A DNA stretch of 6,554 nt from a virus (taxonomy: Duplodnaviria > Heunggongvirae > Uroviricota > Caudoviricetes), in IMG/VR virus record IMGVR_UViG_2531839585_000015; one strand, given 5' to 3'. Below are positions 1 to 6,432 of the stretch, one piece after another (position 1 is the first letter of the stretch; the number at the start of each line of letters is the position of its first letter). The notes below the pieces were generated by a model that ran no database searches, was not told the origin of the DNA, and saw only the letters and a program-made list of their open reading frames with translations. A program made the translations under genes and the position numbers.

Positions 1-1
1 G

Positions 2-1714
2 AAGCTGCCGACGCTGCGCCAGCGCCTGTTCCGCTGCGTGAGTATCCGTGAGAACGACGACGGCACGTATGCCATCACCGCCGTGCAGCATGTACCGGAA
101 AAAGAAGCCATCGTGGATAACGGGGCGCACTTTGACGGCGACCAGAGCGGCACGGTGAATGGTGTCACGCCGCCAGCGGTGCAGCATCTGACCGCAGAAG
201 TCACCGCAGACAGCGGGGAATACCAGGTGCTGGCCCGCTGGGACACGCCGAAGGTGGTGAAGGGCGTGAGCTTCCTGCTTCGCCTGACCGTGGCAGCGGA
301 TGACGGCAGTGAGCGGCTGGTCAGCACAGCCCGGACGGCGGAAACCACATACCGCTTCACACAACTGGCGCTGGGGAACTACAGGCTGACAGTCCGGGCA
401 GTAAATGCGTGGGGGCAGCAGGGCGATCCGGCATCGGTATCGTTCCGGATTGCCGCACCGGCAGCGCCGTCGCAGATTGAGCTGACACCGGGGTATTTTC
501 AGATAACCGCCACGCCGCATCTTGCGGTTTATGATCCGACGGTACAGTTTGAGTTCTGGTTCTCGGAAAAGCGGATTGCGGATATCAGGCAGGTTGAAAC
601 CACAGCCCGCTACCTTGGCACGGGGCTGTACTGGATAGCCGCCAGTATCAATATCAAACCGGGCCATGATTATTACTTTTATATCCGCAGTGTGAACACC
701 GTTGGCAAATCGGCATTCGTGGAGGCCGTCGGTCGGGCGAGCGATGATGCGGAAGGTTACCTGGATTTTTTCAAAGGCAAGATAACCGAATCCCATCTCG
801 GCAAGGAGCTGCTGGAAAAAGTCGAGCTGACGGAGGATAACGCCAGCAGACTGGAGGAGTTTTCGAAAGAGTGGAAGGACGCCAACGATAAGTGGAATGC
901 CATGTGGGCTGTCAAAATTGAGCAGACCAAAGACGGCAAACATTATGTCGCGGGTATTGGCCTCAGCATGGAGGACACGGAAGAAGGCAAGCTGAGCCAG
1001 TTCCTGGTTGCCGCTAACCGTATCGCGTTTATTGATCCGTCTAATGGCAACACAAGACCAATGTTTGTTGGTCAGGGCGATCAGATATTCATGAACGACG
1101 TGTTCCTGAAACGCCTGACGGCTCCGACCATTACCAGCGGCGGTAATCCTCCGGCATTTTCCCTGACACCGGACGGGCGGCTGACGGCGAAAAATGCCGA
1201 TATCAGCGGTAACGTGAATGCGAACTCCGGGACGCTCAACAACGTCACGATTAACGAGAACTGTCGGGTTCTGGGAAAACTGTCCGCCAACCAGATTGAA
1301 GGCGATCTCGTTAAAACAGTGGGCAAAGCTTTCCCCCGGGACTCCCGTGCACCGGAACGGTGGCCATCAGGGACCATCACCGTCAGGGTTTATGACGATC
1401 AGCCGTTTGACCGGCAGATTGTTATTCCGGCGGTGGCATTCAGCGGCGCTAAACATGAGAGGGAGAATAACGATATTTATTCGTCATGCCGCCTGATAGT
1501 ACGGAAAAACGGTGCTGAAATTTATAACCGTACCGCGCTGGATAATACGCTGATTTACAGTGGTGTTATTGATATGCCAGCTGGTCGCGGCCACATGACG
1601 CTGGAGTTTTCGGTGTCATCATGGCTGGTAAATGACTGGTATCCCACAGCAAGTATCAGCGATTTGCTGGTTGTGGTGATGAAGAAAGCCACCGCAGGCA
1701 TCAGTATCAGCTGA
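2..1714 (+). CDS. J: Tail tip / host-specificity protein J, C-terminal ~570 codons; the 5' end lies upstream of the window
   Basis: Frame open from position 2 to TGA at 1712-1714 with no internal stops. The translation ([46 protein letters not shown]...[68 protein letters not shown]...) matches the C-terminal half of phage lambda J as I recall it. The last ~150 residues (from about [13 protein letters not shown]) differ from lambda J. Confidence 0.93.
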
Positions 1715-1733
1715 ATTTTATAACCCATATACG

Positions 1734-1760
1734 GGCGCCAGAAATGGCGCCTTTTTTATT
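1734..1760 (+). terminator. Rho-independent terminator candidate downstream of J
   Basis: Perfect 7-bp stem GGCGCCA (1734-1740) / TGGCGCC (1745-1751) with GAAA tetraloop (1741-1744), followed directly by TTTTTTATT (1752-1760). Begins 20 nt after the J stop codon. Confidence 0.65.
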
Positions 1761-1770
1761 GCAGAAAAGC

Positions 1771-1781: not shown

Positions 1782-2369
1782 ATGCGTAAAGTTTGTGCAG
1801 CCATTTTGTCCGCAGCCATCTGTCTGGCCGTATCCGGTGCGCCTGCATGGGCGTCTGAGCAGCAGGCCACACTGAGCGCAGGGTATCTTCATGCCCGTAC
1901 GAACGCTCCCGGCAGCGATAATCTGAACGGGATTAACGTGAAATACCGTTATGAGTTTACGGACACGCTGGGGCTGATTACGTCATTCAGTTATGCCAAC
2001 GCTGAAGATGAGCAAAAAACGCATACAGCGATACCCGCTGGCATGAGATTCCGTGCGTAACCGCTGGTTCAGCGTGATGGCGGGCCGTCTGTCGCGTGAA
2101 TGAATGGTTCAGCGCGTATGCGATGGCGGGTGTGGCTTACAGCCGTGTGTCGACTTTCTCCGGGGATTATCTCGTACGACAAAGGGGAAAAGCACGATGT
2201 GCTGACCGGAAGTGATGACGGTCGCCACAGCAACACGTCTCTGGCGTGGGGGGCTGGCGTGCAGTTTAACCCGACCGAATCCGTGGCCATTGATATTGCT
2301 TATGAAGGCTCCGGCAGTGGTGACTGGCGCACTGACGGTTTCATCGTGGGTGTTGGTTATAAATTCTGA
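1782..2369 (+). pseudogene. lom: lom (Lom/Ail/PagC-family 8-strand beta-barrel outer-membrane protein), frame-disrupted as sequenced
   Basis: ATG at 1782 opens a typical signal peptide (MRKVCAAILSAAICLAVSGAPAWA) and Lom-like N-terminus (GINVKYRYEFTD...). Frame 0 hits TAA at 2058-2060. The Lom-like reading continues in another frame (VRNRWFSVMAG, 2053-2085), then another (NEWFSAYAMAGVAYSRVSTFSGDYL, 2099-2172), and returns to frame 0 for the C-terminus (HDVLTGSDDGRHSNTSLAWGAGVQFNPTESVAIDIAYEGSGSGDWRTDGFIVGVGYKF, stop TGA 2367-2369). Total span is 196 codons, the size of an intact Lom. At least 3-4 single-base frame changes fall between about 2020 and 2180. Confidence 0.85.
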
Positions 2370-2396
2370 TTAGCCAGGTAACACAGTGTTATGACA

Positions 2397-2422
2397 GCCC
2401 GCCGGTTCAGGCGGGCTTTTTT
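2397..2422 (+). terminator. Rho-independent terminator candidate between lom and stf
   Basis: Stem GCCCGCC (2397-2403) / GGCGGGC (2410-2416) with 6-nt loop, followed by TTTTTT (2417-2422). Begins 28 nt after the lom stop codon. Confidence 0.65.
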
Positions 2423-2433
2423 GTGGGGTGAAT

Positions 2434-3247
2434 ATGGCAGTAAAGATTTCAGGTGTACTGAAAGACGGCACAGGAAAACCGGTACAGAACTGCACAATCC
2501 AGCTGAAAGCAAAACGTAACAGCACCACGGTGGTGGTGAACACGCTGGCCTCAGAAAATCCGGATGAAGCCGGGCGTTACAGCATGGACGTTGAGTACGG
2601 CAGTACAGCGTTATTCTGTTGGTGGAGGTTCCCGCCGTCACATGCCGGGACCATCACGTGTATGAAGATTCACCGGTACGCTGAATGATTTTCTCGGTGC
2701 CATGACGGAGGATGATGCCGTCCGAGGCACTGCGCCGTTTGACTGATGGTGGAAGAGGTGGCGCGTAACGCGTCCGGGTGGCACAGAACACGGCAGCCGC
2801 AAGAAGTCAGCCAGGATGCCGCACATCGCCGTGAGGCGGCAACCCATGCGACTGATGCTCAGGCTCAGCACGGCAGCCAGCACTCAGCCGGCAGGCCGCG
2901 CGTCGGCTCAGTCAGCTCTTCCAGCGCAGGAACGGCATCAACAAAGCCTGAAGCATCAAAAGTGCTGCGCTGCAGAGTCCTCAAAAAGCGCGGCGCTACC
3001 AGTGCCGTGCGGCGAAAACGTCAGAAACGAATGCGCAGCGTCACAAAATCGCAGCCACTTCTGCATCCCCGCGACCACGAAGCGTCAGAAGCGCCACCTC
3101 AGCCCGGGATGCGGCGGCCTCAAAAGAGGCAGCGAAATCATCAGAAACGAACGCATCATCAAGCGCCAGTAGTGCCGCTTCCTCGGCAACGGCGGCAGGA
3201 ATTCCGCGAAGGCGGCAAAAACGTCGAGACAACGCCAGGTCTTCTGA
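2434..3247 (+). pseudogene. stf: Side tail fibre gene stf, 5' portion (tail-attachment domain and start of the Ala/Ser/Thr-rich region), multiply frame-disrupted as sequenced
   Basis: ATG at 2434 is preceded by GGGGTG. MAVKISGVLKDGTGKPVQNCTIQLKAKRNSTTVVVNTLASENPDEAGRYSMDVEYG is the lambda Stf / Rac StfR N-terminus as I recall it. After about 2600 the Stf-like reading hops between frames: PPSHAGTIT in frame 1 (2626-2658), YEDSP in frame 0 (2661-2675), TLNDFLGAMTEDDA in frame 2 (2678-2719), MVEEVARNAS in frame 1 (2746-2775), [36 protein letters not shown] in frame 0 (about 3087-3197). The first stop in the start frame is TGA at 2686-2688. Each frame alternates between Ala/Ser/Thr-rich (expected) and Arg/Gln/Pro/His-rich (shifted) stretches. 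Confidence 0.8.
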
Positions 3248-3760
3248 AACGGCAGCGGGACAGAGCGCCTCGCTGCGGCAGGCTCAAAAACAGCGGCTGC
3301 GTCGTCTGCCAGTGCCGCGTCAACAAGTGCCGGGCAGGCCTCAGCCAGTGCCACCGCCGCCGGAAAATCGGCAGAAAGTGCCGCATCGTCTGCTTCAACA
3401 GCCACAACGAAGGCTGGCGAAGCCACTGAACAGGCCAGCGCAGCAGCGAGGTCTGCTTCCGCAGCGAAGACATCCGAAACGAACGCGAAAGCGTCGGAAA
3501 CCAGCGCAGAATCCTCAAAAACGGCTGCCGCATCGTCAGCCAGTTCGGCGGCGTCATCGGCATCATCGGCGTCTGCTTCAAAAGATGAGGCGACCATACA
3601 GGCGTCAGCAGCGAAGGGCAGCGCCACGACGGCATCCACGAAGGCGACAGAGGCTGCTGGTAGTGCGACGGCAGCAGCTCAGAGCAAAAGTACGGCGGAA
3701 TCTGCAGCAACGCGCGCTGAGACAGCGGCAAAACGGGCAGAGGATATTGCATCCGCCGTG
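2850..3760 (+). repeat. Low-complexity, internally repetitive GC-rich segment encoding the Ala/Ser/Thr/Glu/Lys-rich linker of Stf
   Basis: Recurrent imperfect nucleotide motifs encoding (A)KTSETNA / SSETNA, for example 3015-3034, 3138-3158, 3471-3489. Dominated by GCN, TCN and ACN codons. It produces long spurious ORFs in the alternate + frame and on the - strand. Confidence 0.6.
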
Positions 3761-5791
3761 GCGCTTGAGGATGCGAGCACGACGAAAAAGGGGATAGTAC
3801 AGCTCAGTAGTGCGACTAACAGCACGTCTGAAACGCTGGCGGCAACGCCAAAGGCAGTAAAATCAGCCTATGACAATGCAGAGAAACGTCTGCAGAAAGA
3901 CCAGAACGGCGCTGATATACCCGATAAGGGACGCTTCCTGAACAACATTAACGCGGTCAGTAAAACAGACTTTGCTGATAAGCGTGGTATGCGTTATGTG
4001 CGGGTTAACGCTCCTGCAGGTGCAACATCTGGAAAATATTACCCTGTTGTTGTTATGCGTTCTGCTGGCTCAGTAAGCGAACTGGCATCAAGGGTCATTA
4101 TCACCACGGCAACGCGAACCGCAGGCGATCCGATGAATAACTGCGAGTTTAACGGATTTGTTATGCCTGGTGGCTGGACTGACAGGGGGCGTTATGCTTA
4201 TGGAATGTTCTGGCAATATCAAAACAATGAACGAGCCATCCACTCAATAATGATGAGTAATAAGGGCGATGATTTGCGCTCTGTGTTCTATGTTGATGGC
4301 GCTGCTTTCCCTGTTTTTGCGTTTATCGAAGATGGCCTGTCAATATCCGCACCTGGTGCTGATCTCGTTGTTAATGATACGACCTATAAGTTTGGGGCAA
4401 CAAATCCGGCGACTGAATGTATCGCGGCGGACGTTATCCTTGATTTTAAGAGTGGGCGTGGTTTTTATGAGTCTCATTCGTTAATCGTTAACGATAACTT
4501 GTCGTGCAAAAAACTTTTTGCCACAGACGAAATTGTAGCGCGTGGTGGTAATCAGATTCGAATGATAGGTGGGGAGTATGGGGCATTATGGCGTAATGAT
4601 GGCGCTAAAACTTACCTGCTGCTTACCAATCAAGGTGATGTTTATGGTGGCTGGAATACATTAAGACCGTTTGCTATTGATAACGCAACCGGCGAACTGG
4701 TTATTGGAACCAAACTGTCCGCAAGTCTGAACGGTAATGCATTAACAGCAACAAAGCTGCAAACGCCAAGACGGGTTTCTGGTGTTGAGTTTGATGGTTC
4801 CAAAGATATTACTTTAACCGCCGCGCATGTGGCTGCTTTTGCCAGAAGGGCAACGGATACATATGCCGATGCGGATGGTGGCGTTCCCTGGAATGCCGAA
4901 TCAGGCGCTTATAATGTCACCCGCTCTGGCGACAGCTATATTCTGGTTAACTTCTATACCGGAGTCGGAAGTTGCCGGACCTTGCAGATGAAGGCGCATT
5001 ACAGAAATGGTGGTCTGTTCTACCGTTCTTCAAGAGACGGTTATGGTTTTGAGGAAGACTGGGCAGAAGTTTATACCTCGAAAAATCTTCCACCAGAAAG
5101 CTACCCAGTCGGCGCACCAATCCCGTGGCCATCAGATACCGTTCCGTCTGGTTATGCCCTGATGCAGGGGCAGACTTTTGACAAATCTGCCTACCCGAAA
5201 CTTGCAGCCGCTTATCCGTCAGGCGTGATCCCTGATATGCGTGGCTGGACGATTAAGGGCAAGCCCGCCAGTGGTCGTGCCGTATTGTCTCAGGAACAGG
5301 ACGGCATAAAATCGCATACCCACAGCGCCAGCGCATCCAGTACTGATTTGGGGACGAAAACCACATCGTCGTTTGATTACGGCACTAAATCCACGAATAA
5401 CACTGGTGCGCATACCCATAGTTTAAGTGGCAGCACGAATGCAGCTGGTAATCACAGCCATAGAGATGGCCGTCGATTTAACCCCAGTGTTTTTAAAGAT
5501 ACTTATCAATATGGTTATACAAGCTCAGGTCAAAATACCTGGGGTGTACAAGGCTCAGTAGGTATGTCTACGGGGGCGTTAGCTAATACCAGTACAGATG
5601 GTAACCATAGCCACTCACTGTCCGGCACAGCAGCATCTGCAGGTGCACACGCACATACTGTCGGTATTGGTGCACACACGCACTCCGTTGCGATTGGTTC
5701 ACATGGACACACCATCACCGTTAACGCTGCTGGTAACGCGGAAAACACCGTCAAAAACATCGCATTTAACTATATTGTGAGGCTTGCATAA
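3248..5791 (+). CDS. stf: Side tail fibre protein Stf, uninterrupted 3' portion (847 codons: rest of the Ala/Ser/Thr-rich linker, a central shaft module, and a His-rich lambda-type distal tip)
   Basis: Frame 2 is open from 3248 to TAA at 5789-5791. The ORF track starts it at GTG 3758 only because no start codon occurs earlier in this Ala/Ser/Thr-rich stretch. The C-terminus ([76 protein letters not shown]...[31 protein letters not shown]) matches the lambda Stf / T4 gp37-type tip as I recall it. The whole ORF resembles E. coli Rac StfR from memory; this is not verified by search. Confidence 0.9.
5777..5782 (+). promoter_or_regulatory. Shine-Dalgarno sequence for tfa, inside the 3' end of stf
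   Basis: GTGAGG lies 8 nt upstream of the tfa ATG at 5791-5793. The stf stop and tfa start overlap as TAATG. Confidence 0.5.
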
Positions 5792-6432
5792 TGGCATTCA
5801 GAATGAGTGAACAACCACGGACCATAAAAATTTATAATCTGCTGGCCGGAACTAATGAATTTATTGGTGAAGGTGACGCATATATTCCGCCTCATACAGG
5901 TCTGCCAGCAAACAGTACCGATATTGCACCGCCAGATATTCCGGCTGGCTTCGTGGCTGTTTTCAACAGTGATGAGGCATCGTGGCATCTCGTTGAAGAC
6001 CATCGGGGAAAAACGGTTTATGACGTGGCTTCCGGCGACGCGTTATTTATTTCTGAACTTGGCTCGTTACCGGAAAATGTCACCTGGTTATCGCCGGAAG
6101 GGGAATATCAGAAGTGGAACGGCACAGCCTGGGTGAAGGATACGGAAGCAGAAAAACTGTTCCGGATCCGGGAGGCGGAAGAAACAAAAAACAGCCTGAT
6201 GCAGGTAGCCAGTGAGCATATAGCGCCACTTCAGGATGCTGTAGATCTGGAGATCGCAACGGAGGAAGAAACCTCATTGCTGGAAGCCTGGAAAAAATAT
6301 CGGGTGTTGCTGAACCGTGTTAATACAACAACTGCACCGGATATTGAATGGCCAACAGTACCCATACACAATGTAAGCGAAAAAGAAAAACCGCAGACAC
6401 GACGTATGCAGGACGTGCTGCGGTTTGGCTAG
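5791..6432 (+). CDS. tfa: Tail fibre assembly protein Tfa (chaperone for Stf), 213 aa
   Basis: Intact ORF from ATG 5791 to TAG 6430-6432. The translation [91 protein letters not shown]... is nearly identical over most of its length to lambda Tfa as I recall it, but with a different, longer C-terminal end. Position directly after stf is the canonical arrangement. Confidence 0.95.

Follow-up and report, generated by a model that had tools for sequence, protein, structure and literature searches.

The repeated changes of reading frame in lom, a gene within the window (the whole stretch of DNA analysed here, 6,554 nt), are very probably the product of a consensus collapsed from co-resident prophage copies rather than of mutations. 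This reading is favored because the lost bases sit on sites that vary among copies, two known haplotypes fit the lom sequence, the segment is multi-copy in E. coli genomes, the contig belongs to a draft assembly, and the tfa end of the contig is chimeric. The frame-hopping is present in the deposited sequence, but the bacterium itself almost certainly lacks it. The lom of the window is best regarded as a normal prophage Ail/Lom gene with a corrupted database sequence.

Source contig and gene layout

An exact-protein look-up identified APZI01000095.1 (assembly GCA_000356865.2; 6,554 bp) as the window in full. It is a short, stand-alone WGS contig of a draft assembly, and its source is named as Escherichia coli p0305293.13, an ETEC isolate of a Bangladesh collection with GSCID as the sequencing center. 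The GSCID ETEC genomes were sequenced by Illumina HiSeq2000 at >200x, and Celera Assembler was used to build the assemblies (PMC4462620). The main text of that paper does not contain p0305293.13, and the Illumina and Celera methods are assigned to the contig through the project rather than through the isolate.

The window is the right end of the tail region of a lambdoid prophage and carries the following features:

1..1714, plus strand: J (tail-tip gene), 3′ part, running off the contig start; Pfam Ig_J, Phage_Tail_Tip, and Ig_GpJ_C
1733..1762, plus strand: terminator-like hairpin and T-run in the gap between J and lom; consensus match only
1782..2369, plus strand: lom (Ail/Lom outer-membrane beta-barrel), frame broken; PF06316
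2396..2427, plus strand: terminator-like hairpin and T-run 3′ of lom; consensus match only
2434..5791, plus strand: stf (side tail fiber gene); alignment to relatives
2601..3272, plus strand: zone of base loss in stf, 41 bases in 38 events with 0 insertions; alignment to relatives
5791..6432, plus strand: tfa (tail fiber assembly gene), 213 codons against 191-194 in relatives

The Lom/Ail identity of the gene, proposed in the earlier note from the letters alone, is borne out by matches of both lom fragments to Pfam PF06316, and its position between J and stf of a lambdoid prophage is confirmed as well. The 92-aa fragment at 1782-2057 matches profile positions 1-82 (160 bits, E 6e-47) and the 89-aa fragment at 2100-2366 matches positions 135-199 (111 bits, E 6e-32), the cut-off being 23. 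Profile positions 83-134 are out of frame in the window, and in the intact neighbor S51 the match spans 1-199. Over 1..1714, J contains no indels relative to its relatives. The flanking GC-rich hairpins with T-runs set lom apart from J and stf as a unit of its own, and no sigma-70-like promoter was found by a simple scan of 1650-2480.

Missing bases in lom and stf

Three-frame translation reproduces all of the strings that the earlier note had read in lom. Frame 0, beginning at ATG 1782, stops at TAA 2058-2060. Of the conserved stretches that follow, frame +1 gives VRNRWFSVMAG, frame +2 gives NEWFSAYAMAGVAYSRVSTFSGDYL, and frame 0 gives HDVLTGSDD...GVGYKF*, running to 2369. Start and stop share one frame, with the 588 nt between them making up 196 codons when the stop is counted. 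The wandering of the frame thus described is upheld, but not the path in three steps, as a codon-phase trace gives more of them. A tblastn search with intact Lom as the query spanned the frameshifts of the window by spurious gapped alignment, leaving the frames unseparated. Codon phase was instead traced on the DNA alignment, with the annotated intact 600-nt lom genes of E. coli S51 and 99COLEC as references, and the homology was again spread over multiple frames. It switches frame repeatedly between 2024 and 2192, as listed here from the codon-phase trace:

1782-2024, plus strand: lom in frame 0
2025-2046, plus strand: lom in frame 2 (SDTRWH)
2047-2084, plus strand: lom in frame 1
2085-2092, plus strand: lom in frame 0 (PS)
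2093-2172, plus strand: lom in frame 2
2173-2191, plus strand: scrambled block of lom, with 8 bases gone in several small steps
2192-2369, plus strand: lom in frame 0

The alignment places the missing bases of lom as follows, with the first four being single-base losses of -1 each:

~2024/2025, plus strand: one base lost, C/T in the panel of relatives
~2046/2047, plus strand: one base lost, A/G in the panel
~2082-2085, plus strand: one base lost, A/G in the panel
~2093, plus strand: one base lost, A/G in the panel
2173..2192, plus strand: variable-loop block with 8 bases missing in steps of 1-2 nt

Within the block at 2173..2192, removing bases from the 99COLEC/L019-type sequence is enough to yield that of the window. 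One of the deletion junctions is represented in the window by the 29-mer GAGCAAAAAACGCATACAGCGATACCCGC. A single uninterrupted barrel ORF of ~199 aa is not present in the window, where the homology occupies three frames and meets stops at 2058 and 2097.

As the earlier note held, lom is broken by small indels, and neither an IS element nor truncation is the cause. The note had further called the gene intact in length and its indels compensating, and neither description holds. The 588 nt of lom fall 12 nt short of the 600 nt (199 aa plus stop) of intact homologs, and the changes are deletions throughout, with no plus/minus compensation. That the net loss of 12 is a multiple of three is by chance, for which the odds are one in three. 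The extent of 2020-2180 given for the disturbance was also too narrow, since single-base losses resume in stf at 2601-3272, where 41 bases are involved.

Lambda Lom and the Ail/Lom genes of PF06316 (e.g., WP_001721301.1 of E. coli S51) resemble the lom of the window in lying between J and stf and in the domain matched by both of its fragments. Outside the missing bases, the window has 0 mismatches to S51 lom over 1990-2200 and four substitutions relative to 99COLEC lom across the gene. It departs from these genes in being 12 bases short and in having no 199-aa barrel in one frame. Another prophage lom homolog annotated as disrupted is lomR of the E. coli K-12 Rac prophage, which is split by IS5. 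Unlike lomR, the lom of the window has no IS element and shows many 1-nt losses, which are most likely not real.

In stf, the zone of base loss differs from the best relative, strain 120899, by 1 mismatch and 41 missing bases. The region 2380-3400 (1,021 nt) aligns to 1,062 nt in many complete genomes at 96.0% identity, with gaps accounting for nearly all of the difference. When the whole window is compared with close relatives, no indels are found in 1-2023 or in 3273-6360. The 41 losses do not restore the frame of stf, and because of the missing bases the stf start and the C-terminal 677-codon ORF (3758-5791) lie in different frames. Given that stf lacks these 41 bases, the plus-strand ORFs 2746-3429 and 3312-3797 are no genes; they read the Ala-rich Stf region out of frame. 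Nor are the antisense ORFs 3085-3639 and 3159-3752 likely to be genes. A frameshifted side tail fiber gene adjoining lom is also known from lambda PaPa, the laboratory lambda, whose stf carries one real 1-nt frameshift relative to Ur-lambda, in contrast to the 41 bases missing from the window at sites variable between copies.

In several other assemblies (L010, L008, and L012-L017), the protein entries include the same 677-aa "tail fibre" product together with an upstream 245-aa antisense ORF. Since stf of L010 (4630-8034) is one intact ORF of 1134 codons, the 677-aa entry at this locus was cut short by the gene caller within the Ala-rich region. Over its C-terminal two thirds (3758-5791), the Stf of the window is identical at the protein level to the Stf of the L008 and L012-L016 prophages, which adjoin ybhB-bioA, the classical lambda attachment region. 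The end of the contig, unlike this ybhB-bioA-type Stf, resembles a prophage with other downstream genes, a hint of mixed copies.

Positions of the missing bases and rival explanations

The comparison with relatives rests on a panel of 27 distinct intact sequences covering 1950-3350, which are mutually gap-free at 1454 nt; the window has 1401 nt over the same region. A MAFFT alignment of the panel was dropped, as its affine gaps fused adjacent 1-nt losses and produced spurious mismatches, and was replaced by a linear-gap profile alignment with a matched simulation. In the linear-gap alignment, the window differs from the panel profile by 53 deletions (12 in lom and 41 in stf), with 0 insertions and 0 mismatches, and is therefore a perfect subsequence of it.

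The location of the losses is what decides the matter. Polymorphic columns make up 18% of the zone, and 51 of the 53 deletions can be placed on them. When 53 random deletions were passed through the same pipeline in each of 85 simulations, 14.4 ± 3.2 fell on polymorphic columns, and never more than 23. A Fisher test on the MAFFT alignment, a cruder measure, pointed the same way (odds ratio 8.6, p = 2e-13). Only two of the 53 losses, at ~2629 and 2860, are at sites invariant in the panel. Over lom 1990-2200, haplotypes of the L001/L004 type (S51/PEC301) and of the L019 type (an IMG/VR locus) each match all retained bases with 0 mismatches, and at 10 of the 12 missing columns the two carry different bases. 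Put differently, the lom of the window is the common part of two haplotypes from which the differing positions have been removed. The two-haplotype fit holds for the lom sub-zone only. No single pair in the panel accounts for all 53 sites, the best pair covering 42 of them with many extra predicted differences; thus, either at least three copies contributed or the true copies are absent from the panel.

A rival explanation is that random base-calling or consensus errors, unrelated to any copies, accumulated in a low-quality stretch of noisy reads or very low coverage. Deletion-biased noise would resemble what is seen, namely single-base losses only, clustered in 1.25 kb and free of homopolymer bias. 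Such noise, however, would not hit copy-variable sites at the observed rate (51/53 against 14.4 ± 3.2), nor would it leave two real haplotypes perfect at every retained base. It is also a poor fit to an Illumina project at >200x, as random indel errors are very rare in a consensus of that kind. Random error is accordingly considered improbable. The losses fall at single bases in 60% of cases, with 59.5% expected, and this lack of homopolymer enrichment argues against polymerase slippage and homopolymer-type sequencing error. Noise from PacBio, nanopore, or 454 reads had been the first suspicion and was rejected in view of the Illumina project, the lack of homopolymer bias, and the coincidence with polymorphic sites.

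Genuine pseudogenization, in which a decaying prophage gathered real small deletions in its lom and stf, draws on the knowledge that cryptic prophages decay and that bacterial pseudogenes are deletion-biased, and lom is dispensable for the prophage. The mutation spectrum is nevertheless not that of decay. The 53 deleted bases form 49 deletion events, accompanied by 0 insertions and at most some 1-4 substitutions, and the run-lengths at the lost bases equal the background. Real -1 frameshifts concentrate in homopolymer runs, where no enrichment is seen here, and J, the remainder of stf, and tfa are clean. Nor is there a reason for real deletions to fall on inter-copy polymorphic sites.

The lesions were likewise not seen in other genomes or assemblies. 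In the panel, all 27 relatives carry a base in each of the 53 columns. Among 5,426 complete E. coli genomes, no match to the lom stretch exceeds 95.0% and none to the stf stretch exceeds 96.0%, which are the values expected if every missing base is present in those genomes. The 29-mer of the first deletion junction has 0 exact matches in the GTDB representative genomes and in IMG/VR, and the 92-aa lom product was found on APZI01000095.1 only. An intact twin contig was sought by exact look-ups of Tfa and the Stf fragment; this Tfa proved unique to APZI01000095.1, and the 677-aa ORF appears to occur elsewhere only as a gene-caller truncation, as in L010. Taken together, pseudogenization appears slightly less credible again than random error.

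A different route to real deletions would be recombination between diverged prophage copies in the cell, with an unknown repair process excising each mismatched base of the resulting heteroduplex. Mismatch-directed deletion of this kind would yield the same picture, with 1-nt deletions exactly at inter-copy SNPs; however, we know of no mismatch-excising deletion process in recombination, and this explanation is regarded as highly improbable. Expression of lom through programmed frameshifts, for which a start and stop in the same frame might speak, is effectively refuted by alignment to intact homologs, as these encode the same peptide in one frame, at least 10 frame changes common to no homolog would be needed in 170 nt, and slippery-site logic is not apparent.

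Probable collapse of prophage copies and its consequences

Under the favored explanation, a consensus of collapsed prophage copies, the strain would carry at least two lambdoid prophages with near-identical J-lom-stf regions, the copy number in p0305293.13 being presumed. E. coli genomes carry the lom-stf segment at a median of 2 places each, the highest number being 14. The assembler would then stack the reads of those copies into one short contig, and the consensus would emit nothing where the copies disagree, so that each inter-copy SNP becomes a 1-nt deletion. For the exact software step that drops the bases, we infer two candidates: a mismatch may be split over two staggered half-gap columns, each of which is called as a gap, or ambiguous calls may be stripped afterwards. 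The 12 losses in lom and 41 in stf would in this way scramble both frames, while the strain itself most likely has intact lom copies encoding 199 aa.

Collapsed repeats with correlated inter-copy differences are a recognized signature of mis-assembly (PMC2397507). The window shares with the collapsed repeat described by Phillippy et al. (2008; PMC2397507) a short contig of a multi-copy segment, anomalies where the copies differ (51/53 overall and 10/12 in lom), and a chimeric end. It differs in that the usual consensus keeps one allele, giving a chimera at the level of SNPs, whereas the window is left without the variant base. The dropping of bases at SNP columns by Celera Assembler is undocumented in the literature searched, which yielded only general papers on collapsed repeats. 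The origin of the sequence agrees with an assembly artefact in that a WGS contig, obtained with Celera and Illumina according to the project, also shows copy mixing in tfa:

6339..6365, plus strand: junction in the tfa 3′ end, from an L012/L016-type haplotype to an L004/L007-type haplotype; haplotype comparison

Here, tfa follows the L012/L016 type, that of the prophage beside the bio operon, to ~6360 and the L004/L007 type thereafter. The join adds one base (+1) relative to the L004/L007 type, and with the frame shifted the normal TAA is skipped, extending Tfa from 194 to 213 residues. By exact look-up, the 213-aa Tfa (END52332.1 / WP_001501923.1) occurs on no other contig. The tfa end of the contig is a chimera of two haplotypes and, as such, a second sign of copy mixing.

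The earlier note had raised the prospect of a real lom inactivation that would affect the host phenotype. This is not sustained, as the losses sit on copy-variable sites, the gaps are unshared, and the contig is a short one from a repeat in a draft assembly. The lom and stf of the strain are most likely ordinary intact genes; therefore, APZI01000095.1 gives no grounds for concluding that a serum-resistance or adhesion factor is lost, and the lom frame changes carry very little biological weight. Their practical consequence lies in the databases, where the artefact alone accounts for entries such as END52325.1, a 92-aa "Ail/Lom family protein," and the 213-aa Tfa. Pure single-base losses on sites that vary among repeat copies, with no substitutions, may help as a warning signature for prophage-rich drafts. 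Among public Stf homologs, some are named "short-chain fatty acid transporter" or "tape measure protein," and these names look like propagated mis-annotations.
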